Of a DNA stretch of 61,300 nucleotides, positions 12,742-59,161 are shown in pieces. The position numbers and the translations under genes are program-made. Every line of letters begins with the position of its first letter. The first letter of the stretch is position 1. Below the pieces are notes generated by a model, which did not search any database, was not told the DNA's origin, and worked only from the letters and a program-made list of their open reading frames with translations. Source of the DNA: an uncultured virus (IMG/VR IMGVR_UViG_3300020183_000017) (Duplodnaviria; Heunggongvirae; Uroviricota; Caudoviricetes). The DNA lies in the IMG/VR virus record IMGVR_UViG_3300020183_000017. One strand, given 5' to 3'.

Positions 12742-13488
12742 ATGCCAGTCGCAACAAGAGAACAATTAAAAGAGTATTGTTTAAGAGAACTGGGTGCTCC
12801 AGTTCTCGAGATAAACGTAGACGAAGATCAGCTTGAAGATCGTATTGACGATGCTCTAGAAAAATTTAAAATATACCATCACGAAGGCACTGAAAAATTT
12901 TATCTAAAACATCAGATTACTGAAACAGATAAAACAAACAAGTATATTCCTATACCAGATGCCGTATATGGTGTTACTAGAGTTTTCCCAACAGGAGGCT
13001 CTGGCGCATCAGGATCTAGTCGTAATATGTTTGATATGCAATATCAACTACGATTACATGATCTATACGACTTAACAAGCACTTCTATTATCTACTACGA
13101 AATGGTAAGAGGTCATCTTGCTTTGTTAGATATGATTCTCAATGGGCATACGCTCTATCGTTTCAACAGACTTCAAAATAGATTACATCTAGATATTAAC
13201 TGGGAAAGCGATGTATCAGTTGGTGAGTATGTTTTAGTTGAGTGTTATCGTGCTTTAGATCCATCAACATTCCCACGAGTTTTTAATGAGCCATGGTTAA
13301 AGCATTTTACAACTGCATTGTTTAAGAGACAATGGGGGACTAACCTTAAAAAGTTTCAAGGTCTTCAACTTCCAGGTGGTGTTGTAATTGATGGTGATAA
13401 ACTATATCAAGAAGCAGTGCAAGAAATGAAAGAATTAGAGGACGATCTAATTAACAAATCTGCTCCGCTGGAGTTCTTCCTAGGATAA
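12742..13488 (+). CDS. gp13: Neck protein gp13
   Basis: 'LKEYCLRELGAPVLEINVDEDQLEDRIDDAL' and 'KRQWGTNLKKFQGLQLPGGVVIDG' motifs; synteny. Confidence 0.95.
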   Translation: MPVATREQLKEYCLRELGAPVLEINVDEDQLEDRIDDALEKFKIYHHEGTEKFYLKHQITETDKTNKYIPIPDAVYGVTRVFPTGGSGASGSSRNMFDMQYQLRLHDLYDLTSTSIIYYEMVRGHLALLDMILNGHTLYRFNRLQNRLHLDINWESDVSVGEYVLVECYRALDPSTFPRVFNEPWLKHFTTALFKRQWGTNLKKFQGLQLPGGVVIDGDKLYQEAVQEMKELEDDLINKSAPLEFFLG

Positions 13489-34047: not shown

Positions 34048-34062
34048 TGCAAGAAAAAATAC

Positions 34063-34091
34063 TTGCCTTTAATTTTAACATGTAGTATAAT
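34063..34091 (+). promoter_or_regulatory. Sigma70-type early promoter
   Basis: A-tract + TTGCCT-N17-TATAAT. Confidence 0.82.
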
Positions 34092-34124
34092 TATACCTGT
34101 AGGAACTTTATTATGGAGAATGTA

Positions 34125-35255
34125 ATGGCTGATACGAACTTTGTTCAAACTTTTGAAGCGAAACTCTTTGAGATGTTTCCCGATGTTAAAACTGACGGTG
34201 TTGTGAAGAACCAACAATTTCTAGATGTCATGCGTGAACTAGGCACTACTAAATCACCACGCTGGCTTATGACTACTAAAGTTGGTCGTGGCTTGTATGC
34301 TATTCCTGGCGGAAATTTCTCCGCTCCAGTGGCTGGCAACACTGCTCTTAAACCTGAGAGTGTTGTTGTGGATTATACAGATGTTACAAGTCTTATTCCA
34401 AAAGTTGACCCAAACTATGTTCCTTTCGGAAACTATAAAGATCTAGATCAGATTATTGCTGCTGCGATCTTTTATCCAACTTACATTAGCGGTCCAACTG
34501 GTAACGGTAAGTCTACTAGTATTGAACAAATTTGCGCAAAGCGTAAGCGTCCGCTGATTCGTATTAACTTCAACAATATGACTGATGAAGACCAACTCAT
34601 CGGTACGAAAACCCTTATCGATGGTAATGTGGAAATTGTTGAAGGTCCAGTCGTTATTGCTATGCGACTTGGTATTCCTTTGCTTCTTGATGAAATTGAT
34701 GCAGGTAATTCTAACACATTGATGTGTCTGCAGCCAATTCTTGAAGGTAAGCCATTCTACTTCAAACTCAAGAATGAGTTGATCTATCCTGCTCAGGGTT
34801 TCAATATCTTTGCTACTGCTAATACAAAAGGTAAAGGTAGCGAAGATGGTCGTTACATTGGTACGAACGTACTCAATGAAGCATTCCTTGAGCGATTCGC
34901 TGTTACGTTCAACCAAGAGTATCCAGATGCTCGTGTTGAAATGAAGATCGTAAGCAATCTTATGAAGTCCTATGATTGTTTTGATGAGAACTTTGCTCAG
35001 AACATGGTCAAGTGGGCAGATGCTATTCGTCGTACTTTTGAAGCAGGTGGCGTTGATGAGACTATCACTACTCGTCGTCTGGTTCATATGGTTCGTGCAT
35101 ATGCGATCTTTAAGAATCAAAAGAAGGCAGTCGAACTTTGCACCAATAGGTTCGACGATGCAACTCGCCTTGCTTTTGTTGACCTCTTCGATAAGGTCGC
35201 TACTGGCGACTACGTTGAGGAAACCCCTACGACAACGGACTCGGAGAGTGCGTAA
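34125..35255 (+). CDS. MoxR/CobS-like AAA+ ATPase
   Basis: 'GPTGNGKS', 'LLLDEID', 'ATANTKGKGS.DGR..GTNVLNEAFLERF', 'ITTRRL'. Confidence 0.92.
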   Translation: MADTNFVQTFEAKLFEMFPDVKTDGVVKNQQFLDVMRELGTTKSPRWLMTTKVGRGLYAIPGGNFSAPVAGNTALKPESVVVDYTDVTSLIPKVDPNYVPFGNYKDLDQIIAAAIFYPTYISGPTGNGKSTSIEQICAKRKRPLIRINFNNMTDEDQLIGTKTLIDGNVEIVEGPVVIAMRLGIPLLLDEIDAGNSNTLMCLQPILEGKPFYFKLKNELIYPAQGFNIFATANTKGKGSEDGRYIGTNVLNEAFLERFAVTFNQEYPDARVEMKIVSNLMKSYDCFDENFAQNMVKWADAIRRTFEAGGVDETITTRRLVHMVRAYAIFKNQKKAVELCTNRFDDATRLAFVDLFDKVATGDYVEETPTTTDSESA

Positions 35256-36174: not shown

Positions 36175-36522
36175 ATGGCTGAAGATTTGATGTCAGATAT
36201 ATTAAAATCGCAAAACTCCACACCTGGTGGTCGCAAGTTTGATGGTGGTAAACTTCAATATGGATTAATACCACCACTTGCTCTCAAAGAAATGGTTAAG
36301 GTTCTCACATTCGGTGCTGAGAAATATGAACCAGATAACTGGAAGTTCGTTCCAGACTCAAAGCGTAGGTATTTTGATGCAATGCAGCGTCATCTCTGGG
36401 CATGGAAAGAAGGCGAACAGATTGACCCAGAGTCTGGCATTCATCACTTGGCGCATGCAATGTGTTGCCTTTACTTCTTATATGAACATGATGTCAAATA
36501 TTCTAAGGAGGATGTTAAATGA
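36175..36522 (+). CDS. dATP/dGTP diphosphohydrolase-like protein (DUF5664-type)
   Basis: 'GRKFDGGKLQYGLIP...VLTFGAEKYEPDNW...AMQRHLWAW..GE.IDPESGIHHLAHA' signature. Confidence 0.85.
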   Translation: MAEDLMSDILKSQNSTPGGRKFDGGKLQYGLIPPLALKEMVKVLTFGAEKYEPDNWKFVPDSKRRYFDAMQRHLWAWKEGEQIDPESGIHHLAHAMCCLYFLYEHDVKYSKEDVK

Positions 36523-37193
36523 CAGCTATGGTTTATCGCTCCGCTTCGGCGATTAATGAAGCAATGGGTAGGGTCTATCTAAATATGTTTCTAGCAATTA
36601 TTGTTTCGATGGTAACTGCTGGTCTTGTTTCTTCTAGTCCAGCAGTGGTAGCATTTTTCTTTACGGGAATTATGAAGTGGGTTACAATTTTTGCTCCACT
36701 CGCATTTATCTTGGTGTTATCTTTTGGTATTGAGAAACTTAACAAACAACAAGCAACCCTTGCTCTTTATGCCTTTGCTGGTGTCTGGGGTATTAGTATG
36801 GCTGCTGTGTTCGTAGTATTTACTGTTGGTAGCATCGTATCAGCGTTTATGGGTGCTGCTATCTTATTTGGTATTATGTCTTTCTATGGATATTTCACAA
36901 AGAAAGATTTGACATCTTTTGGTCAGTTCTTATTCGTAGGATTGATCGCAATTATTATTGCAAGTGTTATTAACATCTTTGTTGGTAGTTCAGTTGGCGC
37001 TATGGTTATTTCAGCGCTCGCTATTATTGTGTTCCTTGGTTTAACAGCCTATGATACTCAGAACATTAGGAATATGGTTTCTTCTTCTGATGGTACAGGC
37101 AAAGAAGAAGTTATTGGTGCTCTAAGTTTGTACATCAACTTTATCAATATCTTCCTTGCGCTTCTACAATTATTTGGAAATCGTAATGAATAA
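36519..37193 (+). CDS. Bax inhibitor-1/YccA family membrane protein
   Basis: About seven hydrophobic segments, 'YGYFTKKDLT', 'LTAYDTQ', 'GALSLYINFINIFL.LLQLFG'. Confidence 0.9.
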   Translation: MTAMVYRSASAINEAMGRVYLNMFLAIIVSMVTAGLVSSSPAVVAFFFTGIMKWVTIFAPLAFILVLSFGIEKLNKQQATLALYAFAGVWGISMAAVFVVFTVGSIVSAFMGAAILFGIMSFYGYFTKKDLTSFGQFLFVGLIAIIIASVINIFVGSSVGAMVISALAIIVFLGLTAYDTQNIRNMVSSSDGTGKEEVIGALSLYINFINIFLALLQLFGNRNE

Positions 37194-37224: not shown

Positions 37225-37263
37225 TTATATACATAGTTATGTGTTTAATTGATAGGAGAAAAC

Positions 37264-37926
37264 ATGAAGTTGTCTAAAGAAACAGTCGGAGTCCTAAAAA
37301 ACTTCGCAACCATTAATGCCAATCTTTTAATTAAAGATGGTTCTAAACTCTCAACCATCTCTGCTCAGAAGAATGTTATGGCTTCGGTCAGCGTTCCTGA
37401 AGTTTTTGATAGTGAGTTTGCCATCTATGATCTAAACGAATTCCTTGGAGCGTTATCTTTATTTGAAGATCCAGAACTGGATTTTTCGGAGAAGTCTGTT
37501 AAGATTAAGCAAGGTAACAACTCTATTCGTTACTATGCTGCTGATGTCGGAACTCTAACTGTTCCACCAGCAAAACAGATTAGCTTACCTTCTGATGACA
37601 TCTCATTTGAGTTAAATGCGTCTACTCTCGCTATGATTCAGCGTACTGCTTCTGTTCTGCATTCTAATGATGTAAGCGTAGTTGGTGATGGATCTATGAT
37701 TAAGATCGTAGTTGCCGACAAGAAAAATGCAGCTGCGAATGCCTATGAAGTAACCCTTGGTGATACTGATAAAACCTTTAAGATAAACTTAAAGGTTGAC
37801 AATCTTAAAATGATTCCTGGGAATTACTCTGTTGCTATTTCTAACAAGAAGATTAGTCGTTTCCAGGCAACTACTTCTGATCTAGTTTATTATGTTGCTG
37901 TTGAGGCTGATTCTACATTTGAATAA
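37264..37926 (+). CDS. gp45: Sliding clamp gp45
   Basis: 'MKLSKETVGVLKNFATIN', 'FAIYDLNEFL', 'YYVAVEADS'. Confidence 0.96.
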   Translation: MKLSKETVGVLKNFATINANLLIKDGSKLSTISAQKNVMASVSVPEVFDSEFAIYDLNEFLGALSLFEDPELDFSEKSVKIKQGNNSIRYYAADVGTLTVPPAKQISLPSDDISFELNASTLAMIQRTASVLHSNDVSVVGDGSMIKIVVADKKNAAANAYEVTLGDTDKTFKINLKVDNLKMIPGNYSVAISNKKISRFQATTSDLVYYVAVEADSTFE

Positions 37927-46173: not shown

Positions 46174-46447
46174 GAATTATGAAGTTTTACCAGAGGTTAA
46201 TGATGAGGGTTTTTACAAAGTAAAGATCTTGTCTGGCGACTTTACTGGTTGCGTTTTTAATTTTGGTAAGGTAGCATTCCCTAATGAGGAAGAAGCAGTT
46301 ATGTCTTTTGAATATAACTTGCTTGAAGGTAAAGCTGATGATAAAGCAAAGTTTGAAAATACTATCGGCGATATCCTCGTTGCTCTTATTGTGAAAGCAA
46401 TAGAAAATAAAGATCTAATCTTCAAAGGTGGAACTGATGAGAATTGA
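46154..46447 (+). CDS. Small protein between uvsX and gp41 (gp40-like position)
   Basis: Synteny with T4 uvsX-40-41; '[18 protein letters not shown]' pattern. Confidence 0.6.
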
Positions 46448-47825
46448 GCAGTCGATTATTAGTAATTTGATTTTTGATGAAGAGTACTGCAGAAAAGTTA
46501 TACCGTTCCTAAAAGAACAATACTTCACAGAGAAGAAAGAAAGAATAATTATTTTAACGATCATACAGTTCTTCTCTAAATTCAATAAACCACTTACTAA
46601 AGAAATCCTTGGCATTGAAGTTTCTAACAGAACTGATGTCAACGATAAAGAACATACAGAACTACAATCAACAATTACTGAAATCTCTCAGAATGAGATT
46701 AACAAAGATTGGTTGATTGAACACACTGAGAAGTTTTGTAAAGATAGAGCAGTCTATCTTGCAATTATGGATTCTATTAAAATCATTGAGGGACGAGATG
46801 TCGCCCATACTAAAGATGCTATACCTTCTATTTTATCTGATGCTCTTGCCGTTTCATTTGATAATCATATCGGTCATGATTATATTGAGAATTCAGATGA
46901 ACGCTATGATTTTTATCATAGGGTTGAAGAGAAAATACCTTTCGATATTGAACTTCTCAACAAGATCACTAAAGGAGGTATTTCTAAGAAAACCTTGAAC
47001 GTGATTCTTGCTGGTACTGGTGTTGGTAAATCATTGTTTATGTGTCATGTTGCTGCTGGCGCTTTGGTTCAGAATTTAAATGTATTATACATAACTCTAG
47101 AGATGGCTGAAGAGCGTATCGCTGAGAGGATTGATTGTAATTTACTGAATCTTACTATGGATGAATTGAAGACTATCGACAGAGATATCTACACTAACCG
47201 AGTAAACAAGGTAGCAAACAAAACTCAGGGTAAACTAATCATTAAAGAATATCCTACGGCAACTGCGCACTCTGGTCACTTCCGTGCTTTGCTTGAAGAA
47301 CTAAAGATGAAGAAAGAGTTTGTTCCAGATTTGGTAGTCATTGACTATCTGAATATCTGTTCTTCTCAGAGACTTCGTCATGGGTCAAATGTTAATTCAT
47401 ATACATATATTAAGAGCATCGCAGAAGAAGTTCGAGGATTGGCAGTTGAATACAATGTTCCTATTCTGAGCGCAACTCAGACAACTCGTTCAGGGTTTAC
47501 TAACAGCGATCCAGGTTTGGAAGATACTTCTGAATCGTTTGGTTTGCCAGCAACAGTTGATTTTATGTGCGCTTTGGTTAGTACTGAAGAAATGGAACAG
47601 TTAAATCAGATTATGGTCAAACAACTCAAGAATCGTTACAGTGATCCAAATTATTACAAACGATTTATTGTTGGAGTTGACAGATCTAAGATGAAATTAT
47701 ATAATGTCGAAATGTCAGCGCAGAATGATATCGCTGACGTAGGTGATGTTGATGATACGCCATTATTCGACAAAAGTAAGTTTAGTAAACGAAACTCTAT
47801 AGATAGCTCTGGGTTTAAATTTTAA
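46437..47825 (+). CDS. gp41: Replicative helicase gp41
   Basis: 'LAGTGVGKSLFMCH', 'ITLEMAEERIAERID', 'IDYLNIC', 'SATQTTR', 'TSESFGLPAT'. Confidence 0.97.
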   Translation: MRIEQSIISNLIFDEEYCRKVIPFLKEQYFTEKKERIIILTIIQFFSKFNKPLTKEILGIEVSNRTDVNDKEHTELQSTITEISQNEINKDWLIEHTEKFCKDRAVYLAIMDSIKIIEGRDVAHTKDAIPSILSDALAVSFDNHIGHDYIENSDERYDFYHRVEEKIPFDIELLNKITKGGISKKTLNVILAGTGVGKSLFMCHVAAGALVQNLNVLYITLEMAEERIAERIDCNLLNLTMDELKTIDRDIYTNRVNKVANKTQGKLIIKEYPTATAHSGHFRALLEELKMKKEFVPDLVVIDYLNICSSQRLRHGSNVNSYTYIKSIAEEVRGLAVEYNVPILSATQTTRSGFTNSDPGLEDTSESFGLPATVDFMCALVSTEEMEQLNQIMVKQLKNRYSDPNYYKRFIVGVDRSKMKLYNVEMSAQNDIADVGDVDDTPLFDKSKFSKRNSIDSSGFKF

Positions 47826-47836
47826 CGGAGAATATA

Positions 47837-49162
47837 ATGGTAAAAGTATACGTAGCGCCAAAATATCACGAAAGCGAACATTTGCTTGGAATGTTTGTTG
47901 ATGAACAACAGTATGATGTTCTTGTTGAGGAAGATATGGATTGTTATCTTCCGCTGGGAACTAATATCGGTAATGATAAACTTGATGAGAAACGAATTGC
48001 ATTTAAGTTTAGAAAGAACTTCTTCACTAAAGAAGAACAACAAGCTGCATATGTTGGGCTTCGTGAAGCAGCTATCAGAACTGAGAATCGTGGACTTGCT
48101 TCTGGTATTAAAGCAGGAACTCAGGTTACTGGGGTTGGTCGTGAGTGGGTTACTAACTACCAAGAAGAAATGCTAAATGGTATTATCGACGCACGTAATG
48201 CAGCTATTGTTGATGAAGATGTCATCGAAACAATCAGATCCAAATATCCAACAGAAGAATCTAGACTGAAGGCTCTTGGTTCTGGTAAGAATAATGTTTG
48301 GGTCATCTCCCGTTTCCGTGGTAAGTTTAACTTTGATGAGTGGGTTGATTCTATCAAAACATTGGGTCGAGAAGAGCGAGCAAAATCAGCAGAAGAAACT
48401 ATGAAGATGGTTTCAGAAACTTCTTATGGTAATCCAGTTGACTCGGGTATTGCTGGTTGGTTCGATCGCTATCCACGTATTCCTTATGGTCGTGCAACAA
48501 CATACACAAGAGATAATTGGGATAAGTTTAAGATGGCATTTCCATTCTTACAATCTTTGAATCGTGGTTTCAAAGAACTTCTTCCATGGCGTTGGTCTAA
48601 TCAGAAAGCAGCAGCTGATAAGATTGATCAAAGTTTCTTAGTTCCTGAAACTGTGTTCACTACAATTACCGTGAATAAAACATTTAGAACTGCTGCCCAT
48701 CGCGACGCAGGTGACCTTGACTCAGGTCTTTCAAACCTTCTAGTTCTTTCCAATGATGGTCGTTTCACTGGAGGATATTTGGTGTTCCCTGAGATTCGTG
48801 TTGCTGTTAATGTGCGACCAGGAGATCTTCTATTAGTTAATAACCATGAAGTGATTCATGGCAATACTCCAATTGTTTGTGAGGAAGGTTCTGAGCGTAT
48901 TAGTCTAGTTTGTTACTTCCGCGAAAAGATGCTTGAACTTGGAAGTAAAGAATATGAAGATACACGTTATCAATTCGTTGAAGATCGCAGAACTAACCAA
49001 GAGCATCCAGAGTGGCGTAAGCTATGGAATGGTGTTTCTCCAAGTATGTGGGATAATCAAGAATGGTATGATTATCTTGAAGAGAAACTTGGTTATGATG
49101 AGTTAATTAAGTATCATCCTAAAGCAGAGAAAGCAAATTCTTTAGAAGGATTCTTTTCATAA
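47837..49162 (+). CDS. TET/JBP-family 2-oxoglutarate/Fe(II) dioxygenase (predicted methylpyrimidine hydroxylase)
   Basis: 'FTTITVNKTFRTAAHRDAGD' (HxD), 'GGYLVFPE', 'PGDLLL', 'IHGNTPI' (distal H), 'ERISLVCYFRE' (2OG-binding R). Confidence 0.88.
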   Translation: MVKVYVAPKYHESEHLLGMFVDEQQYDVLVEEDMDCYLPLGTNIGNDKLDEKRIAFKFRKNFFTKEEQQAAYVGLREAAIRTENRGLASGIKAGTQVTGVGREWVTNYQEEMLNGIIDARNAAIVDEDVIETIRSKYPTEESRLKALGSGKNNVWVISRFRGKFNFDEWVDSIKTLGREERAKSAEETMKMVSETSYGNPVDSGIAGWFDRYPRIPYGRATTYTRDNWDKFKMAFPFLQSLNRGFKELLPWRWSNQKAAADKIDQSFLVPETVFTTITVNKTFRTAAHRDAGDLDSGLSNLLVLSNDGRFTGGYLVFPEIRVAVNVRPGDLLLVNNHEVIHGNTPIVCEEGSERISLVCYFREKMLELGSKEYEDTRYQFVEDRRTNQEHPEWRKLWNGVSPSMWDNQEWYDYLEEKLGYDELIKYHPKAEKANSLEGFFS

Positions 49163-49866
49163 TGTGCGCTGTTATCGGTTGTGTTCTTAATAAACCAACG
49201 AAACAAGATTTCGCTATCATCAAGCGTGTGTTCATTGAATCTAAAATTCGAGGAATGCACGCTACAGGAATGTCTTTTCTACCTCGTTGGAAAGATGGTT
49301 TAGAAACCATTATTGCGCCAAGACCAGCGCATGAATTTGTTTTCCTACATATGCACGATGATAACTTACCGAGTATTGTAAACTCTGACGGCAATCTTTA
49401 TATGATTGGTCATTGCCGATATAGCACAAGCGACTTAGAATTCAATCAACCAATTTCTAATGTAAATAAATCTATCGCCCACAATGGAGTTATTACTCAA
49501 GAGTTGCCCGAGAACTGGAAAGAACTGTATGGTTATGACTGCATAACTAAGAATGATTCTGAACTTGTCCTGCATTCTAATGACCCATTGTCTGAGTTTC
49601 CAAATATGTCAATGGCTGTTTGTTCTTTAACTACGGATAGGGAACTTACTGCATATAGAAATGGAAAGCGTCCAATTTACTTGGCTAAACTTGAGAATGG
49701 GTTTATAATTACTTCAACAGCTGACATTGCTATTAGATCGGGGTTAAGCAATCCTGAAGAGATACCGATGAATAGTTATTATACAATCGATAGAAATATG
49801 AAACTACATATTACTAAGGTTGCCGTTGAGGGTGAAGATCTACAAAGGATTAATGATGTTTTCTAA
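49162..49866 (+). CDS. Class-II (Ntn) glutamine amidotransferase-like protein
   Basis: N-terminal nucleophile 'MCAVIG', 'RGMHATG', 'GHCRYSTS', 'NQP', 'HNGVI', 'NDSE'. Confidence 0.9.
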   Translation: MCAVIGCVLNKPTKQDFAIIKRVFIESKIRGMHATGMSFLPRWKDGLETIIAPRPAHEFVFLHMHDDNLPSIVNSDGNLYMIGHCRYSTSDLEFNQPISNVNKSIAHNGVITQELPENWKELYGYDCITKNDSELVLHSNDPLSEFPNMSMAVCSLTTDRELTAYRNGKRPIYLAKLENGFIITSTADIAIRSGLSNPEEIPMNSYYTIDRNMKLHITKVAVEGEDLQRINDVF

Positions 49867-50728
49867 AGACAAATACACTTATGGTATGGAAATTGAATGG
49901 GGTGACATACCAAGAAACATGACAGTCCCAGATAATCTTGGCGCATGGGAATATAGTGAACGTGATATCATTAACACAAGAGATCCCCATAAGAATGTTT
50001 GCGCTGATCCGCTTGGTGTTGAACCTCCATTTGGAGGTGAGATTAACACAAGACCAACTAGAACTTGGATTGAACAAGTAGATCGTTACTTTGAATTATA
50101 TGACTACTTCGATAAAGCTGGTCATCCTCCAACTATATGCACAACTAATCATACACACATACACTGTCACGTTCCAGGACTGAAAGAAGATGTAAATGCG
50201 CTAAAGCGTTTCATCAAATACGTAAAGGAAAACCAGCACACTGCCATTGAACATGCATATGGTTTCTATGAAACTGGAGATATGAAGCAAGTCAAAGGCG
50301 CAAAGATGTATCTAAAGTTTGATGGTGGTCGTCCAATGCCAGATTATATGTGCGATAACATCATCAACCTAGCAACAGACTTTGATCACTTTATTAAACT
50401 GCATGCTGCTGGAAAAGATGGCGTTTCTATGGGTCGTCCTTTTAGATACGCAATCAATACGTATTCAATGAAACATATCGGAACTATTGAGTTTCGTTTA
50501 TTCAGAGGTACATTAGATAGAGAAGAACTATCTTCTTGTTTTAGATTTGTTGAAGACTTTATTGATGCTGCTCTCAATGATGGTCCAAGCGTATATGATA
50601 TGATTGCTGAGGGTCGTTATAAATTTCCACCAATGATTTGGAGTCTTGAACAATTCAAAGGTTGGGAGAAAACAAAACATCCAGAAGATCGTGGAGAAAA
50701 GAAACGTGAGTTCATTGAAGTTGTCTAA
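49853..50728 (+). CDS. Putative amidoligase (COOH-NH2 ligase, glutamine synthetase/GCS-like fold)
   Basis: 'YTYGMEIEW', 'GGEINT', 'HTHIHCHV', 'RYAIN', 'TIEFRLFRGT'. Confidence 0.82.
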   Translation: MMFSKDKYTYGMEIEWGDIPRNMTVPDNLGAWEYSERDIINTRDPHKNVCADPLGVEPPFGGEINTRPTRTWIEQVDRYFELYDYFDKAGHPPTICTTNHTHIHCHVPGLKEDVNALKRFIKYVKENQHTAIEHAYGFYETGDMKQVKGAKMYLKFDGGRPMPDYMCDNIINLATDFDHFIKLHAAGKDGVSMGRPFRYAINTYSMKHIGTIEFRLFRGTLDREELSSCFRFVEDFIDAALNDGPSVYDMIAEGRYKFPPMIWSLEQFKGWEKTKHPEDRGEKKREFIEVV

Positions 50729-51263
50729 GTGTTCTCGTGCTGATTTTGTAGCAGCAATATCAACTGACAAAGAAGACTCATTTGCTAAGACTTTTGTCGC
50801 AAAAGCAGATATGCAAAAACAGTGGGGTGATTGTATTGGTGCGTGGGATAATGATCAACTATGTGGTGCTATTATAACAACTGTTGGTAAACGTCCACCA
50901 TATACTGCTAATCTTCAACTACTTCATACATTTGCTGCTCATAGAGGCAAGGGTGTTGCTAAACTTCTATGTCTTGATTCACTTCGCATTGCTAAGAAAA
51001 AGGGAGCAAAGTATTTTAGAGTTTCATCCGAGAAAGATGCTGTTGCTTTCTATGAGAAGATCGGCTTCAAGTTTTGGGGCAAGCAAAAATCTGGTTGTCA
51101 GTTATCTATCTTTAGAATAGATGGTTCAGACTTTGCAACTGGAGATTACGATTATACCGATCAGATTATAAACAATGCAATTCATAAGAAAGGTAAGGGT
51201 GGGTGTGTGGAGATATTTGATATTGCAAACCTTCCCAAACCTGTTACTCTAGAAGGGTTTTGA
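50706..51263 (+). CDS. GNAT-family acetyltransferase
   Basis: Acetyl-CoA motif A 'HRGKGVAKLL' and motif B 'AVAFYEKIGF'; GTG start chosen from the upstream GGAG. Confidence 0.88.
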   Translation: MSSLKLSKCSRADFVAAISTDKEDSFAKTFVAKADMQKQWGDCIGAWDNDQLCGAIITTVGKRPPYTANLQLLHTFAAHRGKGVAKLLCLDSLRIAKKKGAKYFRVSSEKDAVAFYEKIGFKFWGKQKSGCQLSIFRIDGSDFATGDYDYTDQIINNAIHKKGKGGCVEIFDIANLPKPVTLEGF

Positions 51264-51278
51264 GGAGTCAAAAATACC

Positions 51279-51307
51279 TTGCCTTTCATTCAAGAGTATG
51301 GTATAAT
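51279..51307 (+). promoter_or_regulatory. Sigma70-type promoter inside the modification cluster
   Basis: A-tract + TTGCCT-N17-TATAAT. Confidence 0.8.
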
Positions 51308-51338
51308 ATACTTACTATAAACTCTTGAATAATACATT

Positions 51339-51941
51339 ATGAAACCGCATTATAAACTTGTCTGTGACTATGTGTTCTCTGATAAAAACATAAGCGAATA
51401 CAGCGACTGTGAGCAAATGACTATCAACCTTGCCATAGAAGTTTTGACTACTCATGGTATGGGTGGTAAGTTTATGGAAACTCTTATACGAGAAAAGTAT
51501 AGACTTGGTAATGATGGTAAGATTCATGGTTGGGACGGCATGACTAAACAGAATCGTCCAGTTGAAATTAAAACTGAAACTGTTAATGATTCAAAGAAGT
51601 TATTTTGTGAAGCATCCTTTGCTCCTAATACTGAAAAAGCTCCAAGCAAGAAACAACAATTCCTCAAAGAAAAACCAATCTTGATTAGCAGTGGATTATG
51701 TAATGATACAGGTAAGTGTATATACGTTATGTTCACAGACACGGATAAGTTAAATCCTAATGCTAAGATTTTTGATATGCTTGATCGAAATTCTCCAAGG
51801 ATTAACTTCAGTCACTGGTGCGCAAATACTGATGCTTTCGATGTTAAATATAAAAACTTAAAACTCGTAGATAAACATTTTTACTCTATGCGTGAAGAAC
51901 TTAGAAAAGAACTTAAGAATGTCGCTAGATTACCGTTCTAA
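51339..51941 (+). CDS. Hypothetical protein, possible PD-(D/E)xK endonuclease
   Basis: 'FMETLIRE...HGWDGMTKQNRPVEIKTET' fits E...D-x(n)-ExK; has its own promoter. Confidence 0.55.
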   Translation: MKPHYKLVCDYVFSDKNISEYSDCEQMTINLAIEVLTTHGMGGKFMETLIREKYRLGNDGKIHGWDGMTKQNRPVEIKTETVNDSKKLFCEASFAPNTEKAPSKKQQFLKEKPILISSGLCNDTGKCIYVMFTDTDKLNPNAKIFDMLDRNSPRINFSHWCANTDAFDVKYKNLKLVDKHFYSMREELRKELKNVARLPF

Positions 51942-52944
51942 AGAAAATAGACGTGAGGCATTTATTCGATGGTATGCGTGGTCATTAAAACACAATGACT
52001 GCGATCCAGCCATTTGGCTCACAAACTATTTGAACTCAAGATATGAACATAATGATGAAGAGAGAATTTGGCTTTGTTGGTTATATGGTAACACGTATCA
52101 AATGCCAACTGCTTGGGTTCTGAAGAATGAGTTTCCAGATTTTGAATTAGCAACATACGATAGAATGAAATTATGGAACTCTGCTAATTATCCTAAATTA
52201 AGATATCAGACTGATACGAAATGGAACAAGGGTCATCTCCCAGAAATGTTTGCTTCGTATAGAAAGTTTATTGGAGATAAAACACAACGAGAGGCATTGG
52301 AGAATTACTATGGAGATAATGAGGAAGCAAACTTTGAGGCTTTGTGGAGCAGCATTAAAAGTGGGCTTCATAAGTTTGGTCGTTACTCCACTTGGTTTTA
52401 TCTTCAGCATCTTAAGCATACTGCTGGCATTCGGATTAATCCTACTAGCCTCATGCTTAATGATTATGATGGCTCTCGCTCTCATCGTAATGGACTTCTT
52501 TATGCCATTGGGCAAGATGACGATCTGGACAGAAAACTGTCTGCAGGAGATTATGCGAGACTTGAATCACAAGCAAGGGAGATTGTGGAGGAAACGAAAG
52601 ATAGGTTCGCCGAGATAGCGCACCTTGTTGATTTCTTCACAATGGAAACTTGCTTATGCTCATTTAAGAAAATCTTTAGAGAGCATCATGGAAGATATCT
52701 TGGTTATTATCTTGATAGGCAATCTGAAGAGATTCAAGTGGCTGAGGGTGATGGGTGGTATGGTATTGACTGGGATGTTCTATGGCAAGCAAGAAATGAA
52801 ACACTCGATCCAAAACTTACGGGAAGAAATAAAATTAACAAAGAGAACTTTTCTTTGTTTGTTGATTCAGGTAGAATCATGAGACTAGAATGGATGTTTG
52901 ACGATATTAAAACTAAGCCAATTGGCTTGGAGGCATTTTTATGA
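51919..52944 (+). CDS. Amino acid:DNA transferase (aGPT-Pplase2-like, HhH-glycosylase-derived fold)
   Basis: 'DCDP', 'WLCWLYGNTY', 'YQTDTKW', HhH-like 'HKFGRYSTWFYLQHL', 'METCLCSFKK', 'RYLGYYLDR'; adjacent to a P-loop kinase. Confidence 0.8.
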   Translation: MSLDYRSKENRREAFIRWYAWSLKHNDCDPAIWLTNYLNSRYEHNDEERIWLCWLYGNTYQMPTAWVLKNEFPDFELATYDRMKLWNSANYPKLRYQTDTKWNKGHLPEMFASYRKFIGDKTQREALENYYGDNEEANFEALWSSIKSGLHKFGRYSTWFYLQHLKHTAGIRINPTSLMLNDYDGSRSHRNGLLYAIGQDDDLDRKLSAGDYARLESQAREIVEETKDRFAEIAHLVDFFTMETCLCSFKKIFREHHGRYLGYYLDRQSEEIQVAEGDGWYGIDWDVLWQARNETLDPKLTGRNKINKENFSLFVDSGRIMRLEWMFDDIKTKPIGLEAFL

Positions 52945-53483
52945 GAAAGATTGTAGCAGTGGGTGGATCGCCAGGAACTGGTAAGACTACTCTGTTTAGA
53001 AAATTTATGGAGAATAAAGAATGGGAATTTGTTGAGCCCAAGAAACTTCTCCCTGCGCTTTATAATAAAGAACTAGATCTGTACATCCTTGGTAAATATG
53101 AAGAAGGCGAAACTTTTGCAGGAACTGATCGGTTAAGTATGGCTGTTCAACCAACAGCGCAAGAGTTCGTGATGGAATGCACCTCTAATATCTTGTTTGA
53201 GGGTGACCGAATTTTCAATCAGTCTTTCCTAGAATTCTGTTCTGCTCTTCCCAATACCGACTTGAGGGTTCTTTTTCTAAAAGTTCCAAAGGAGATTTTA
53301 GGAGATAGATACAAAGAGAGGGGATCAGACCAGTCTGAAACTTTCTTAAAAGGTAGAGAAACTAAATATAGTAATCTACTGGCAAACTTTGAACTGATGC
53401 CCTATATTACTGAGTTTGTAAATACTAACTTAGAGGAGCAGCAGAAAGTTCTTGCATATCTGGAGGATTCCTTCTCCGTTTGA
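52941..53483 (+). CDS. P-loop kinase, predicted hydroxymethylpyrimidine-DNA kinase
   Basis: 'GGSPGTGKTT', 'LGKYEEGETFAGTDRLSM', 'ILFEGDRI', lid 'RYKERGS'; ATGA-coupled to the transferase. Confidence 0.8.
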   Translation: MRKIVAVGGSPGTGKTTLFRKFMENKEWEFVEPKKLLPALYNKELDLYILGKYEEGETFAGTDRLSMAVQPTAQEFVMECTSNILFEGDRIFNQSFLEFCSALPNTDLRVLFLKVPKEILGDRYKERGSDQSETFLKGRETKYSNLLANFELMPYITEFVNTNLEEQQKVLAYLEDSFSV

Positions 53484-53508
53484 CTTGCAAGGATTTTCTA
53501 GGTATAAT
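53480..53508 (+). promoter_or_regulatory. Sigma70-type promoter, probably leaderless transcript
   Basis: TTGACT-N17-TATAAT with the ATG at 53515. Confidence 0.75.
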
Positions 53509-53514
53509 AGTAGT

Positions 53515-54210
53515 ATGAACTTCCTAGAAACTTGCAACTTTGACTGGATCAGAATGCTCAATTTTTATGAGCGTCCGTTCAGAGCCAAACTCATCCCATC
53601 AAAAGTATGGAAAGATTTAGACAAATATAAAAACGATACTCAAGGGTTGATAAATTATTCAAAGAAGTGGAGAACTTCTGTTAAGTTTATCAAGAACAAA
53701 TCTAAAGCGAAATTTTGGCAGGAGTATATCGCTGTAGGTGGAGAATACTGGGACAAACGCTGTGAGATACAAATTTACACAAACAAGTTTGACACCTTTA
53801 AATTTAGCGATAACTCTTGGGAAAGATTTAAATACAAATACATCCAAGTTCTAATGCATGAACTTATCCATTTTATGCAATATGAGCGTAGAGATGAGGA
53901 ACCAAGCAGAAGATATTATAAGTGGAAGAGAACTCATAGCGCAAAACTAGACGAGATGCGTGAGTATCACAGCTGCTATGATGAGGTTCAAGCCTATGCC
54001 CACTGCATTTATCTAGACTACAAATATAAGAAACCAAATAAAGATATTCACGATCTGTTGTTAGAGTGTCGTGATCGTTCTAACTCTCCTACTCTAACTG
54101 ATATCTTTAAGACTTTCGATTACGATTTTCGTAACAATGAAACTCTAAAGATTCTACTCAAAGAAGTCTACCGCTGGCACGTAAAGTACGAAAAGTTCCT
54201 AGCTGAATAA
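53515..54210 (+). CDS. Hypothetical protein with zincin HExxH motif
   Basis: 'VLMHELIHFMQ' and downstream 'DEVQAYA'. Confidence 0.65.
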   Translation: MNFLETCNFDWIRMLNFYERPFRAKLIPSKVWKDLDKYKNDTQGLINYSKKWRTSVKFIKNKSKAKFWQEYIAVGGEYWDKRCEIQIYTNKFDTFKFSDNSWERFKYKYIQVLMHELIHFMQYERRDEEPSRRYYKWKRTHSAKLDEMREYHSCYDEVQAYAHCIYLDYKYKKPNKDIHDLLLECRDRSNSPTLTDIFKTFDYDFRNNETLKILLKEVYRWHVKYEKFLAE

Positions 54211-55255: not shown

Positions 55256-55870
55256 ATGATAAGGTTTAAAGAATACATAACTGAAGAGACTAGCGGAGGT
55301 AGCCTTTCGATATTCGATATCGATGATACTCTGTTTCATACCACTGCTCAAATCGCCGTAGTTAAAGACGGAACTGTTATTAAAAAGTTAACAAACAACG
55401 AGTTCAATACTTACAAGTTGGGCGCTGGTGAATCGTTCGACTTTTCTGAGTTCCGCGATGCGCATAAGTTTTATACTGAGTCGAACCCTATTGCCAGAAT
55501 GTTAGAAAAGGCAAAGATAATCCTAAAGAACTCAGAGAAAAATCCTCTAAGTAAAGTTGTCATTGTTACTGCTAGAGCAAACTTTGACGACAAAGAAAAG
55601 TTCCTAGCGACTTTTAGAAAACATGGATTCGACATTGACAAAGTTCGTGTTGAACGTGCTGGAAACATTAGTGGTGAGTTTATACCTGCGTTCAAGAAAG
55701 CGATTATTATTCGCAACTATCTAAAAGCAGGTTTATTTACTAAGGTAAGATTGTTTGATGATGCTATGAGCAATCTTAAAGAATTCTTAAAGTTGAAAAC
55801 AGAATTCCCTAGCGTTAAGTTCGAAGCATACTTCGCATATCCTGACGGAAGAATAAAAACAATAAGATGA
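55256..55870 (+). CDS. HAD-superfamily phosphatase
   Basis: Motif I 'IFDIDDTLF', motif II 'IVTAR', motif III K, motif IV 'LFDDAMSNL'. Confidence 0.85.
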   Translation: MIRFKEYITEETSGGSLSIFDIDDTLFHTTAQIAVVKDGTVIKKLTNNEFNTYKLGAGESFDFSEFRDAHKFYTESNPIARMLEKAKIILKNSEKNPLSKVVIVTARANFDDKEKFLATFRKHGFDIDKVRVERAGNISGEFIPAFKKAIIIRNYLKAGLFTKVRLFDDAMSNLKEFLKLKTEFPSVKFEAYFAYPDGRIKTIR

Positions 55871-57096
55871 AAAATCTAAAAGACTATATCAAAGAAGAAA
55901 AGAATGTTCACATGGAACATCTTGAAGACTTGGTCTTCAATGAAGGTGTAGCGGGAACACGCAAAGCAATTAATTTCTTACGCGATCTTCGCGATATGTT
56001 AGCTGGTCATTCTAATTCTAAAATTACAACTACAGTTAAATGGGATGGTGCTCCAGCAATCTTTGCTGGTATTGATCCACGCGATGGAAAGTTCTTCGTA
56101 GCAAAGAAGGGTGTCTTCAATAAAGACCCAAAAGTTTACAAAACACCAGCAGATATTGATGCTGATACTGACGGCGATCTAGCAGCTAAACTAAAAGTTG
56201 CTCTAAGAGAATTTAAGAATTTCGGAATTAAGTCTGGTGTTTATCAAGGCGACTTGATGTTCACCGATGATAAGAAAGTCGAAACTATCGATGGTGAGAA
56301 ATATATATCCTTTCATCCTAATACTATTGTCTATGCTGTTCCTTATAATAGCGATTTGGGTCGTAAAATTCGTAGTGCTAAAATTGGAGTCGTCTGGCAT
56401 ACAACCTACACTGGAAAATCTTTTGATACGATGACCGCATCTTTCGGTCAATCTATCGTATCAAAGTTTAGTCATCCCCCTTCTGTTTGGATGGACGATG
56501 CTAATTACAAAGATTACTCAGGAACTGCTACTTTTACTAAAGCGGAAACTGATCATATAACTTCTCAGCTATCAACTGTCGGTTCTTTGTTCCAGTCTAT
56601 GAATGCGATAACTCTTAACGCAATCTCAAACGATCCTGACCTTTTAATGCAGGTCAAAACCTATAACAATACTAAGATCCGTTCTGGAGAGTTAATCTCA
56701 GATACTAACTCCCATGTTACTGGATTGTTTAATTATATCCACGACAAATTCCAGAAAGAGATCGACTCTAAAAAGACGGAGAAAGGTAAGTCCGCTCAGG
56801 AAGAAAAACGTAAGAAGATTATGGCTTTCTTCGCTAATCATGATAAGAGAGAGATCGTCAAGATATTCGATATCGCTAATATGCTTACTGATATAAAGAA
56901 CCAGATAGTTTCCAAGATGAATCAGGCTGGTCATATTTCCACCTTCATTAAGACTTCCAATGGATTTAAAGTTACTGGAGTAGAAGGTTTCGTAGCAATT
57001 GACCACCTAACAGGTGGTGCAGTTAAGATAGTTAATCGTATGGAGTTCTCTAAAGCGAACTTCTCAGCCGACGTTATAAAGGGTTGGCAAAGATAA
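55867..57096 (+). CDS. Conserved T4-like phage protein with a ligase-type KxDG motif (DUF6267-like)
   Basis: 'HMEHLEDL', 'TVKWDGAPAIFAG', 'QGDLMF', 'EGFVAID', 'VKIVNRMEFS' follow the order of nucleotidyltransferase/ligase motifs I, III, IV and V. Confidence 0.7.
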   Translation: MKNLKDYIKEEKNVHMEHLEDLVFNEGVAGTRKAINFLRDLRDMLAGHSNSKITTTVKWDGAPAIFAGIDPRDGKFFVAKKGVFNKDPKVYKTPADIDADTDGDLAAKLKVALREFKNFGIKSGVYQGDLMFTDDKKVETIDGEKYISFHPNTIVYAVPYNSDLGRKIRSAKIGVVWHTTYTGKSFDTMTASFGQSIVSKFSHPPSVWMDDANYKDYSGTATFTKAETDHITSQLSTVGSLFQSMNAITLNAISNDPDLLMQVKTYNNTKIRSGELISDTNSHVTGLFNYIHDKFQKEIDSKKTEKGKSAQEEKRKKIMAFFANHDKREIVKIFDIANMLTDIKNQIVSKMNQAGHISTFIKTSNGFKVTGVEGFVAIDHLTGGAVKIVNRMEFSKANFSADVIKGWQR

Positions 57097-57102
57097 AAAT
57101 GA

Positions 57103-57110
57103 TATAAATA
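57103..57110 (+). promoter_or_regulatory. T4-type late promoter (cytidylyltransferase-like operon)
   Basis: Exact intergenic TATAAATA. Confidence 0.8.
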
Positions 57111-57139
57111 ACAGTAGTTGCAAGTTTTGTAGATGGGTA

Positions 57140-59161
57140 ATGATGAAAAAGTTTAAACAGTTAATGGAGGGATTGCCTCCGAAGAAAATCGTGTTCGCCT
57201 TTGGTCGCTTTCAGCCACCAACGATAGGTCACGAGCTTCTTGTAAAAACAGTCAAAAAGATCGCTGAGGCTACAGCCGATCACGTCATTTACGCTTCCAG
57301 AACTCAGGACGCTAAGAAGAATCCCCTAGCAGTAGAGAGAAAAGTATACTACCTGAAGCGTATGTTTCCAGGTATGAATTTCGCTGCAGCTAACGATGAG
57401 CAAAGAACTTTCATGGAAGTTGCTGCTGCTCTAAACAAAAAGTATAAGCATATTGTTATGGTCGCAGGAAGCGATCGCATAGCAGATTATAAAAGAATAC
57501 TGAACAATTACAATGGTAAAGACTTTAACTTTGAATCGATTGAAGTAGTTTCCGCTGGTGAACGAGATCCAGATGCTGATAATGCATCAGGAATGTCTGG
57601 AACTAAGATGAGAGAAGCTGCTAAGAAGGGCGACTTTAAACTATTCAAAACAGGTTTACCGCATACAATTACTGATTTAGATGCTCGTCGTTTAATGAAC
57701 GAACTGAGAAAAGCGTCAGGTCTTCAACCAGTTAAAGAATCTTTGAATATTGTTGTTGATGAACTAAGAGAAAAGTATTTTAGAGGAGAGATCTTTAATG
57801 TAGGTGATACCGTTACATGTAATGAAGAATTTTTATCTATTGTAAAACGTGGATCTAACCATCTTCTAGTGAAAGCTGAAGATGGTTCATTACATTCTAA
57901 GTGGATCCATGAAGTTCAAGTTGCTGAGGATTTCCAAATTAGAGGGGACGATATGCAAGACGAATATGATTTCTCTAAAGGCACTAGAGGTGCAGTTCTA
58001 AAAGAAAAAGAAGAAGGTCATCCACTAACAAGCAAAACTCTTAAGCCAAACGACAAGATTAAAGTTGCCAGAGTTATCGCATCGATGCTGGGTGTTGAGA
58101 ACCCAGAGTCAATGTCAAATCCTGATCAATTAGTCAATACTGCTTTAAGAAAATTGAAGAGCAAAGCACTTAATCCAGAATCAGTTAACATAGTAAAAAG
58201 AATGCTAGAATTAGCTAATGAGGTTGGTATTAATTATGATGAAAAACTTTTACAGTCTAAACTAAAAGAAGAAGACGAAATGCAGAGCATTTTAAAATTC
58301 AGAGAATTTCATAAGAAAGATCATCTAAGAAAGATGAAGCGCAACTATCAACTTGGCGAAGAAAATTTAGATGAAGTTGGTAATACTGCTAAAGGTCAAA
58401 AGATGTTGGCTAAAGTTCAGAAACGTGCTACAGATAGATTAATTAAAGCAGACGATAAAAATAGATTAGAGCCAGATGTCTCAAAGAGAGATCTACAGAC
58501 AGTAAGAAAGAATGCTGCTACTGCTCAACGTGCTTATGACAGATTAAAAGAAGAAGATGAGTTAGATGTGCCAGTTTTAGAGAATGAAGAAACATGGGCG
58601 CAAAGAGTTATTGATGAGGAAGACGTTAATAACAACGCATTACCTTTACATGCTGATGCTCAATTTCCAGAAGACGAAGAAGACTTCGAAGAAATTTCTG
58701 ATGAGGAAATTGATGCTATGGTAAATAGCATGACTGACGAAGACATTATGGAGCATGGCTATGACGATAATGAACTCGCAGTTATCGATGATGATACTGG
58801 CGAGGAAGTAGAACTAGATGATGACCCAGTAAAAGAAGCAGCGCTGATGGAAGTTCTATCTCGTTTAGAAAGAATTAAAGCAAGAGCAAGATTTAGAAGA
58901 ACAGAAGCGAAACGTGAGCGTCGCCTTTCAATTGCTTTGAAGAAAACTTCTAATACTCAAACGATTAATCGCAGAGCAAGAAGAATGGCAATCAAAGCAT
59001 TGAAACAAAGATTTGCTAGAAAACCCGTAAGTAAACTTTCAGTCGCTGAAAAAGAAAGATTAGAGCAAAGAATTCAAAGAATGAAGCCAGTTTTAAATAG
59101 AATTGCTATGCGTATGGCTCCTCGTGTTCGTAGGCTAGAAAGAGATAGGATTAGAAAATGA
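57140..59161 (+). CDS. HIGH-family cytidylyltransferase-like protein with a long charged C-terminal extension
   Basis: 'FAFGRFQPPTIGH', 'MVAGSDR', 'SAGERDPDA', 'MSGTKMR'. Confidence 0.85.
   Translation: MMKKFKQLMEGLPPKKIVFAFGRFQPPTIGHELLVKTVKKIAEATADHVIYASRTQDAKKNPLAVERKVYYLKRMFPGMNFAAANDEQRTFMEVAAALNKKYKHIVMVAGSDRIADYKRILNNYNGKDFNFESIEVVSAGERDPDADNASGMSGTKMREAAKKGDFKLFKTGLPHTITDLDARRLMNELRKASGLQPVKESLNIVVDELREKYFRGEIFNVGDTVTCNEEFLSIVKRGSNHLLVKAEDGSLHSKWIHEVQVAEDFQIRGDDMQDEYDFSKGTRGAVLKEKEEGHPLTSKTLKPNDKIKVARVIASMLGVENPESMSNPDQLVNTALRKLKSKALNPESVNIVKRMLELANEVGINYDEKLLQSKLKEEDEMQSILKFREFHKKDHLRKMKRNYQLGEENLDEVGNTAKGQKMLAKVQKRATDRLIKADDKNRLEPDVSKRDLQTVRKNAATAQRAYDRLKEEDELDVPVLENEETWAQRVIDEEDVNNNALPLHADAQFPEDEEDFEEISDEEIDAMVNSMTDEDIMEHGYDDNELAVIDDDTGEEVELDDDPVKEAALMEVLSRLERIKARARFRRTEAKRERRLSIALKKTSNTQTINRRARRMAIKALKQRFARKPVSKLSVAEKERLEQRIQRMKPVLNRIAMRMAPRVRRLERDRIRK

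Follow-up and report, generated by a model that had tools for sequence, protein, structure and literature searches.

A probable TET/JBP-initiated hypermodification cluster in an uncultured T4-like phage

Positions 47837..53483 of a 61,300-nucleotide (nt) stretch of DNA from an uncultured virus (IMG/VR record IMGVR_UViG_3300020183_000017; the whole stretch is hereafter called the window) raise the question of which modified base a compact set of DNA-modification genes would make, and by what chemistry. A first-pass annotation, made from the letters of the sequence, had proposed that these genes hypermodify the phage DNA, beginning with a TET/JBP dioxygenase. We consider post-replicative thymidine hypermodification in an uncultured T4-like phage to be the best explanation of the cluster and, judging from homology, a highly probable one. 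The cluster is another example of a published kind; the annotation was right in outline and overstated its rarity.

All genes of the window lie on the + strand, and T4-like phage genes are found across it: gp20 portal, gp23 capsid, sheath, UvsW/X/Y, clamp, clamp loader, RegA, a family-B polymerase and a DnaB-type helicase. The helicase gene, of the gp41 type (46428-47825, +; DnaB_C, E-value 6.4e-21), lies directly 5' of the cluster. It is followed, in this order, by genes for the TET/JBP dioxygenase, a glutamine amidotransferase (GATase), an amidoligase, a GNAT acyltransferase, a 200-amino-acid (aa) open reading frame (ORF), an amino acid:DNA transferase (AADT, formerly aGPT-Pplase2) and a P-loop kinase. 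The dioxygenase and GATase genes overlap by 1 nt, the GATase and amidoligase genes by 14 nt, and the AADT and kinase genes by 4 nt. The six enzyme assignments of the annotation are borne out by Pfam, hhalign and AlphaFold2/Foldseek evidence. In profile and structure searches of the kind that it had proposed, Tet_JBP, GATase_6, GNAT and PF18724 scored above cut-off, the amidoligase was recognized through its fold and the kinase through hhalign.

Such a cluster is far beyond chance, and the identical gene order recurs across IMG/VR. When IMG/VR was scanned with the AADT, 357 of 358 pattern matches encoded AADT relatives, and 80 loci were kept, denoted below by L and a number. Three of them are 100% identical to the window and thus represent the same phage. 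Locus counts given below are, unless stated otherwise, for the 48 of 80 loci that carry both dioxygenase and kinase genes; the other 32 were incomplete and were left out. The AADT is present in all 48 loci by construction.

The tailoring set of GATase, amidoligase and GNAT had been called unusual. This did not hold: the GATase is found in 48/48 loci, the amidoligase together with the window's type of GNAT in 26/48, and similar neighbourhoods are already in print, as the annotation itself had suspected. Amidoligase and glutamine amidotransferase domains have been described to co-occur, with their function given as unknown, and TET_JBP to replace the hydroxymethylase (Lee et al. 2021, NAR, PMC8989533). 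Clade C1 dioxygenases are reported as "consistently linked" with GATases, P-loop kinases and AADTs (O'Toole et al. 2026, PNAS, PMC13229309); the 23,070 5mYOX contigs of that study comprise 2,543 with a kinase, 3,371 with an AADT, 2,501 with a GATase, 1,627 with a GNAT, 5,959 with ParB and 1,285 with a C5-methyltransferase. The clusters of Lee et al. 2021 (Fig. 2, sequences 22-25) and the clade C1 clusters of O'Toole et al. 2026 have PF12851, PF18751, PF18724, PF13522 and a GNAT in common with the window, as well as TET in place of the dUMP hydroxymethylase and an origin in aquatic phage contigs of the IMG/VR type. The window differs from them in the absence of an adjacent ParB gene, a longer dioxygenase insert, a polymerase-like tail and an inserted restriction-endonuclease-like ORF.

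In the literature searches made, no product was named for a TET-GATase-AADT-kinase cluster, and no chemically characterised base was found for this gene set, in agreement with the annotation. Published work on this large aquatic family stops at step one, the T-dioxygenase activity of related clades. The comparative data presented here narrow the question, since the core is fixed, the tailoring cassette is interchangeable and three of the enzymes carry polymerase-like tails. New here are the cassette swapping, these tails and a predicted PvuII/BisI-like nuclease in the slot between the GNAT and AADT genes. Thymine hypermodification protects phage DNA against restriction enzymes and, probably, against further nucleases; its enzymes are also of use in labelling DNA and in sequencing chemistry.

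The dioxygenase and the probable source of 5-hydroxymethyluracil

The first gene of the cluster (47837..49162, +) encodes a TET/JBP (5mYOX) 5-methylpyrimidine dioxygenase of 441 aa that matches PF12851 with an E-value of 4.1e-24 (85.1 bits, cut-off 34.9). Residues H288, D290, H341 and R354 do not vary among nine homologues, those of Cr30, DLP6, S-CBWM1 and HTVC112P among them; we take the first three to be the HxD...H iron ligands and R354 to be the 2-oxoglutarate-binding arginine. Over the core of the protein (residues 201-377), identity to Pelagibacter phage HTVC112P gp18 is 53.1%; the gp18 gene is located directly 3' of a ParB-like gene. The catalytic core appears to be clade-C1-like, with HTVC112P gp18 serving as the proxy and the published 5mYOX sequences compared by eye only.

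Conversion of T to 5-hydroxymethyluracil (5hmU) has been shown for clades C1 and C2, and ParB followed directly by the dioxygenase is the arrangement of the ParB-dependent clade C1 enzymes (O'Toole et al. 2026, PMC13229309). Relative to HTVC112P gp18, the subfamily of the window enzyme has a C-terminal extension of about 70 aa, and its N-R-G motif is separated from the S-G-I-A-G motif by a segment with about 70 aa more. Published swap experiments attribute dependence on ParB to this segment, the "variable insertion" (O'Toole et al. 2026, PMC13229309).

Neither a ThyA-family hydroxymethylase (PF00303) nor a C5-methyltransferase (PF00145) was found in any of five relatives, two of which are rated 100% complete (160.9 kb and 173.0 kb), or among the 55 window proteins scanned; positive controls of the profile searches gave signal. 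ThyX is present in two of the five relatives, therefore ordinary T is made. From the lack of PF00303 and the presence of ThyX, it follows that these phages make ordinary thymine and have no nucleotide-level hydroxymethylase. This supports the proposal of the annotation that the TET/JBP enzyme replaces such a hydroxymethylase. The annotation had allowed either 5hmU or 5-hydroxymethylcytosine to be formed on DNA. The lack of a hydroxymethylase agrees with 5hmU being made on DNA; the 5-hydroxymethylcytosine pathway is unlikely and was rejected, as no C5-methyltransferase was found in the five relatives or among the scanned window proteins.

The kinase and the AADT

The kinase gene (52941..53483, +) encodes a 180-aa P-loop protein that we predict to be a 5-hydroxymethyldeoxyuridine (5-hmdU) DNA kinase. 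The protein falls just below the Ploopntkinase3 cut-off (26.1 bits, cut-off 27), and 12 of 16 members of its family match this model at E<=1e-3. When the kinase family profile was compared with gp49, the 5-hmdU DNA kinase of phage PaMx11, an hhalign probability of 95.6% was obtained (E-value 1.2e-8). PaMx11 gp49 carries the annotation "terminase small subunit" and is therefore probably the source of the same odd label on the best PHROG match of the window kinase.

The product of 51919..52944 (+), with 341 aa when counted from the ATG at 51919 (the longest ORF starts at GTG 51892), matches PF18724 with an E-value of 4.6e-21 (76.1 bits, cut-off 26.2), and its earlier assignment to the aGPT-Pplase2 family is thus borne out. 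Searching PDB sequences with the AADT family profile gave no match at E<=0.01 and chance matches only at E<=10. In a MAFFT alignment, the window AADT shares the E243-T244-x-x-C247-x-x-K250 and F153-G154 motifs with PaMx11 gp46, in which the active-site residues E243 and T244 are named as metal ligands and C247 as a base clamp (PMC11472151). In the same alignment, the glycine-contacting residues W146 and K150 of gp46 are matched by Y156 and F160, so the nucleophile pocket appears unlike that of the glycine transferase. The annotation had the kinase and the AADT act as they do in phages ViI, M6 and PaMx11. Homology of the kinase to the PaMx11 enzyme supports this view at the level of sequence.

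A fixed core and an interchangeable tailoring cassette

The GATase (49162..49866, +) is a stand-alone class II (Ntn) glutamine amidotransferase of 234 aa that begins with Met-Cys and scores 30.3 bits against GATase_6 (cut-off 27). C2, R30, R86, N108, G109 and D132 are the same in all 22 sequences compared; these positions match the glutamine pocket of GlmS and PurF, with its motifs Cys1, R-x-x-T, N-G and D. All 48 loci carry the gene, including the 19 that have no amidoligase; it always adjoins the TET gene and lies strictly between the TET and AADT genes. Since the GATase is kept in every one of the 19 amidoligase-free loci, its partner would be a core enzyme. The specific GATase/amidoligase pair envisaged by the annotation is thus not borne out.

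The amidoligase (49853..50728, +; 291 aa from the ATG at 49853, the longest ORF starting at TTG 49820) is a carboxylate-amine ligase of the glutamine-synthetase/GCS2 fold. It scores below the Pfam Amidoligase_2 cut-off (14.6 bits, cut-off 22); a relative that is 32% identical to it (L082:8600-9565) passes at 30.9 bits. Invariant in the family are G11, E13, E15, H102, H104, E213, F214 and R215, which make up E-x-E, H-x-H and E-F-R motifs. The AlphaFold2 model of the protein (pLDDT 80.4, pTM 0.84) retrieved only carboxylate-amine ligases in a Foldseek search. The leading matches were 1tt4/YbdK (E-values from 4e-4 to 3e-3, TM-scores 0.43-0.45), and further matches were glutamine synthetases, GmaS, gamma-glutamylcysteine ligases and PafA (overall TM-scores 0.35-0.45). 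The relative that passes the threshold and the fold search with the predicted structure together confirm that the product is an amidoligase.

The GNAT acyltransferase gene (50712..51263, +) matches Acetyltransf_10 (E-value 9.4e-12, 45.5 bits, cut-off 23.6) and Acetyltransf_1 (37.2 bits, cut-off 20.7). TTG 50712 is its likely start because it aligns with the "MKL" starts of relatives; the longest ORF begins at 50646.

A GNAT-type gene is present in 45 of the 48 loci and an amidoligase gene in 29. The GNAT type of the window always co-occurs with the amidoligase (26/26 loci), and the two are found together in 26/48 loci. A second, distant GNAT type is found without the amidoligase in 19 loci, and three loci have a cassette of a glycosyltransferase, an amidoligase and a low-molecular-weight phosphatase. 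In the latter three (L082:7525-10008, L044 and L052), a GT1 glycosyltransferase, an amidoligase above the Pfam threshold and an LMWPc phosphatase (E-value 1e-16) occupy the same slot. An ORF of about 140 aa separates the AADT and kinase genes in 16/48 loci, and L030 has an additional 2OG-Fe(II) oxygenase (PF13759, E-value 9.5e-19) 5' of the AADT.

An AADT tree was built from loci in which both the GATase and the AADT are visible (57 rows, 39 of them distinct). On this tree, the class of cassette changes at least six times, the least possible number being two. The mean for shuffled classes was 19.0 changes, and none of the 200 shuffles was as low as the observed number. Sister AADTs joined by very short branches have different cassettes in the pairs L041/L044 (support 98) and L027/L034 (support 91). 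We conclude that the dioxygenase, GATase, AADT and kinase form a core and that the tailoring genes are interchangeable. Two consequences follow. The combination of a fixed core and a swapped cassette suggests that the GATase serves the core rather than the amidoligase. The cassette swaps, in turn, argue for one common core-made intermediate that is able to take acetyl, acyl or sugar. The most likely candidate for this intermediate is 5-aminomethyluracil made with glutamine-derived ammonia.

Proposed pathway

By homology, the TET/JBP-type dioxygenase would convert thymine in DNA to 5-hydroxymethyluracil, the P-loop kinase would phosphorylate the hydroxymethyl group to give 5-phosphomethyluracil, and the AADT would swap the phosphate for a nitrogen nucleophile. 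We suggest that the nucleophile may be ammonia freed from glutamine by the Ntn GATase, in which case 5-aminomethyluracil would result. We hold this ammonia route tentatively, at slightly below an even chance. A precedent is provided by the glutamine phosphoribosyl pyrophosphate amidotransferase PurF, in which ammonia from an Ntn glutaminase displaces (pyro)phosphate from an activated carbon. The parallel is one of analogy only: in the window, the glutaminase stands alone as a protein of 234 aa, and a base in DNA would be the acceptor.

Tailoring may then proceed in two steps. The glutamine-synthetase-fold ligase would use ATP to acylate the amine with a carboxylate, possibly glutamate, and the GNAT could cap the remaining or the new amine. 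A gamma-glutamyl adduct is among the candidates, given that every structural neighbour of the amidoligase activates a carboxylate of the glutamate type. In loci with the simple cassette, the GNAT would yield 5-acetylaminomethyluracil.

A different use of the same enzymes, which we regard as unlikely, is that the AADT joins a free amino acid via its alpha-amine, as in M6 and PaMx11; the GATase and amidoligase then amidate the carboxylate as a split asparagine-synthetase-like pair, and the GNAT acetylates. Such a scheme agrees with the substrates of the characterised AADTs, which are amino acids or putrescine in every case (Lee et al. 2021, PMC8989533). It would also account for the adjoining, overlapping GATase and amidoligase genes, and it draws on the GATase homologues of cultured phages, which were found in PaP3-like Pseudomonas phages only (96 records). 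These phages presumably carry amidoligase genes as well. It is opposed by the presence of the GATase, always beside TET, in all 19 amidoligase-free loci, by the swapping of the amidoligase cassette while the GATase and AADT stay, and by the lack of conservation of the glycine-contacting residues of gp46.

Polymerase-like C-terminal tails

A tail of the L-E-x-F type ends five of the 59 non-overlapping ORFs of the window. Four of these tails belong to the polymerase (...VTLESFFG), the dioxygenase (...NSLEGFFS), the GNAT (...PVTLEGF) and the AADT (...IGLEAFL). The fifth, also polymerase-like (...SAPLEFFLG), ends a 248-aa ORF (12742-13488, +) that has no Pfam match and stands beside the neck and tail genes. 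Across the loci, the tail was found in 5/5 polymerases, 52/54 dioxygenases, 70/80 AADTs and 9/43 GNATs; it was not found in any of 56 GATases, 42 amidoligases, 68 kinases or 20 helicases. In T4 and RB69, such tails bind the gp45 clamp. By analogy, they may tether TET, AADT and GNAT to the sliding clamp, of which the window encodes a gp45 homologue (37249-37926).

Weighing the alternatives

The distribution of the tails bears on another alternative, according to which a module of its own, made up of the GATase, the amidoligase and the GNAT, acts on a metabolite or a protein rather than on DNA. We consider it quite improbable. In its favour are the confinement of cultured-phage GATase homologues to the PaP3-like phages, which are not known to hypermodify thymidine, and the lack of the tail from all amidoligases (0/42) and GATases (0/56). 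Standing against it, the GATase gene is held strictly between the TET and AADT genes in 48/48 loci, the gene junctions are translationally coupled and the GNAT of the window lineage has the same tail as TET and AADT. Moreover, these families have been treated as a hypermodification neighbourhood (Lee et al. 2021, PMC8989533; O'Toole et al. 2026, PMC13229309). That the dioxygenase acts on 5-methylcytosine (5mC), so that cytosine is hypermodified, is very improbable: clade A and B phage TETs do oxidise 5mC and kinase action on 5-hydroxymethylcytosine was raised as a possibility for some contigs (Burke 2021), but PF00145 is absent from all five relatives and from the scanned window ORFs, the catalytic core is nearest to ParB-associated C1-type enzymes, and the kinase and AADT are homologous to those of the thymidine pathway.

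Several points weigh against thymidine hypermodification by the pathway that we propose. Earlier tests in E. coli are reported to have found no activity of ParB-less clade C1 enzymes on T or 5mC (O'Toole et al. 2026, PMC13229309); no ParB_N match was found in the window, and tblastn searches with the HTVC112P ParB and with the ParB/Srx-like proteins of relatives retrieved nothing there. The absence of ThyA, of the C5-methyltransferase and of ParB holds for the 61.3-kb window and its relatives only. The residue matches between the AADT and gp46 rest on the MAFFT alignment and on the common Pfam family, and hhalign failed to match the AADT family with gp46 (probability 0.3%). No GATase-AADT fusion was seen, and a search for longer AADTs, which is weak evidence, returned one 638-aa protein that is AADT only. 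The Ntn pocket would equally fit a gamma-glutamyl-amide hydrolase, which makes ammonia donation a candidate role only. Finally, the pattern used for the tails also matched UvsX in 4/10 loci, where the tails are acidic and of a different kind.

Carried to its full extent, the proposed pathway would lead to an undescribed thymine. Ammonia would pass from GATase to AADT in a PurF-like manner, the base would bear an N-acetylated gamma-glutamyl-aminomethyl chain, the dioxygenase, AADT and GNAT would ride on the clamp, and the nuclease-like protein encoded within the cluster would discriminate modified DNA. We regard this complete picture as speculative and improbable as a whole. If it is true, glutamate released by the glutaminase would perhaps be reused by the ligase, and modification would follow the replication fork.

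Comparison with characterised and cultured phages

A chemical parallel to the pathway is found in phage PaMx11, where 5-acetylaminomethyl-dU is made by the gp49 kinase, the gp46 glycine:DNA transferase, the gp47 flavin adenine dinucleotide (FAD) lyase and the gp48 acetyltransferase. The window and PaMx11 have in common the homologous kinase, an AADT of the same Pfam family with the E-T-x-x-C-x-x-K motif, and a GNAT. The similarity between the two GNATs is marginal, being limited to 28 aligned residues. 5-Aminomethyl-dU is a plausible common intermediate, which PaMx11 reaches via glycine and the FAD lyase. Unlike PaMx11, in which 5hmU comes from an enzyme annotated as thymidylate-synthase-like, the window has no FAD lyase and has the GATase and amidoligase instead.

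The same scheme, from 5hmU through a phosphate to a nucleophile, operates in ViI, with a serine:DNA transferase, and in M6, with a glycine:DNA transferase. Homologues of the window AADT in ViI-like phages are 26-27% identical to it, with E-values down to 2e-23. In contrast to ViI and M6, the window has neither a pyridoxal-phosphate decarboxylase nor a radical S-adenosylmethionine isomerase, and the hydroxyl would be put on DNA, not on the nucleotide.

No near-identical DNA was found among cultured phages. The cultured T4-like Caulobacter phage Cr30 (L002; KF301602.1, 51-61 kb) encodes, within about 9 kb, homologues of the dioxygenase (44.5% identity), the AADT (27%) and the kinase (42.9%). Its AADT matches PF18724 with an E-value of 1.3e-52, and its dioxygenase has the same long insert. 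Cr30 differs from the window in that its locus contains no GATase, amidoligase or GNAT homologue at E 1e-5 and its genes are scattered among small ORFs. An inositol-1-phosphate synthase gene is also present there, among the dioxygenase, AADT and kinase homologues. In the literature searched, no report on the DNA bases of Cr30 or DLP6 was found. Cr30 would thereby offer a tractable system in which to study thymidine modification initiated by TET.

The slot between the GNAT and AADT genes

The 200-aa ORF located between the GNAT and AADT genes (51339..51941, +) has no Pfam or PHROG match. Its conserved residues and predicted structure point to a restriction-endonuclease-like protein of the PD-(D/E)xK type. 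H63, D66, E76, K78 and E80, which correspond to the PD-(D/E)xK pattern, are invariant in its family of 19 sequences. When its AlphaFold2 model (pLDDT 92.7) was used as a Foldseek query, the top matches were restriction endonucleases only, namely the Eco15I N-domain, NhoI, PvuII and DpnI (E-values from 1e-3 to 9e-3, probabilities 0.95-1.0, TM-scores 0.4-0.57). The nearest named Atlas clusters are PvuII-like and MamI-like restriction endonucleases. The ORF is present in 3/48 loci, has a promoter-like site of its own and occupies the same slot as the ParB/Srx-like gene of other loci described below. From these data, the product is predicted to be a PvuII/BisI-like nuclease, probably an accessory insertion rather than a pathway enzyme, and possibly mobile. 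A nuclease that spares modified DNA is a possible role for it.

In 15/48 related loci, a protein of about 435 aa is encoded between the GNAT and AADT genes (for example, L057:8701-10032 and L041:8700-10001); the window does not have it. This protein has a ParB/Srx-like core, and its PDB profile matches are Noc (E-value 1.8e-4), SbnI (0.002) and ParB (0.13). One of eight members gave a faint N-terminal GIY-YIG-like signal (SegE_GIY-YIG, E-value 0.084). The protein may be a ParB-type dioxygenase activator or a mobile, free-standing homing nuclease. No similarity was detected between the 200-aa ORF product and the ParB/Srx-like proteins of relatives.

Promoter-like sites and neighbouring genes

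Three promoter-like sites, all on the + strand, are associated with the cluster. A sigma-70-type site that matches the consensus at 12/12 positions (TTGACA-17-TATAAT; 47677..47705) lies within the 3' end of the helicase gene, about 130 nt 5' of the TET start. A 10/12 site with TG (51279..51307) is located in the 75-nt gap 5' of the nuclease-like ORF, and an 11/12 site (53480..53508) just 3' of the kinase stop. These sites are consensus matches only; there are 38 such matches in the region, the shuffled mean being 30.6. A hairpin (53461-53478) precedes the last site, and the two together likely mark the 3' boundary of the cluster. The T4 late-promoter motif TATAAATA has three matches, fewer than the chance mean of 5.6, and none is inside the cluster.

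Directly 3' of the kinase gene in this lineage, with the 53480..53508 site in between, a 230-aa protein is encoded (53518-54210, +). It contains an invariant HExxH motif (H114, E115, H118) and the sequence D-E-x-Q-A-Y-A-H; 16 aligned homologues are 46-56% identical. The protein has no Pfam, PHROG or PDB sequence match, and the Atlas leads are weak (SprT-like, 0.85). The motifs make it resemble a zincin-like metalloprotein, and it may possibly belong to the modification cluster.

Further from the cluster, a 3,109-aa ORF (3403-12732, +) without a Pfam match at E<=1e-3 is located 5' of the genes for the neck and the tail-sheath stabiliser. Its product is presumably a giant fibre or other structural protein. 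At 31822-35255 (+), a 741-aa ORF without matches is followed by a CbbQ/NorQ-type AAA5 ATPase gene (PF07728, E-value 5.7e-16; CbbQ_C). At 36175-37193 (+), the gene for a protein with a dATP/dGTP diphosphohydrolase N-terminal domain (PF18909, E-value 2.6e-35) is followed by that for a Bax1-inhibitor/YccA-type membrane protein (PF01027, E-value 1e-48), which is unusual in a phage replication module. At 55867-59161 (+), a DUF6267 protein (E-value 5e-109) is encoded ahead of a 673-aa protein with a cytidylyltransferase-like domain (PF01467, E-value 4.6e-5); a "cytidylyltransferase-like" category is listed for clade C1 neighbourhoods in the legend of Fig. S4 of O'Toole et al. 2026 (PMC13229309).

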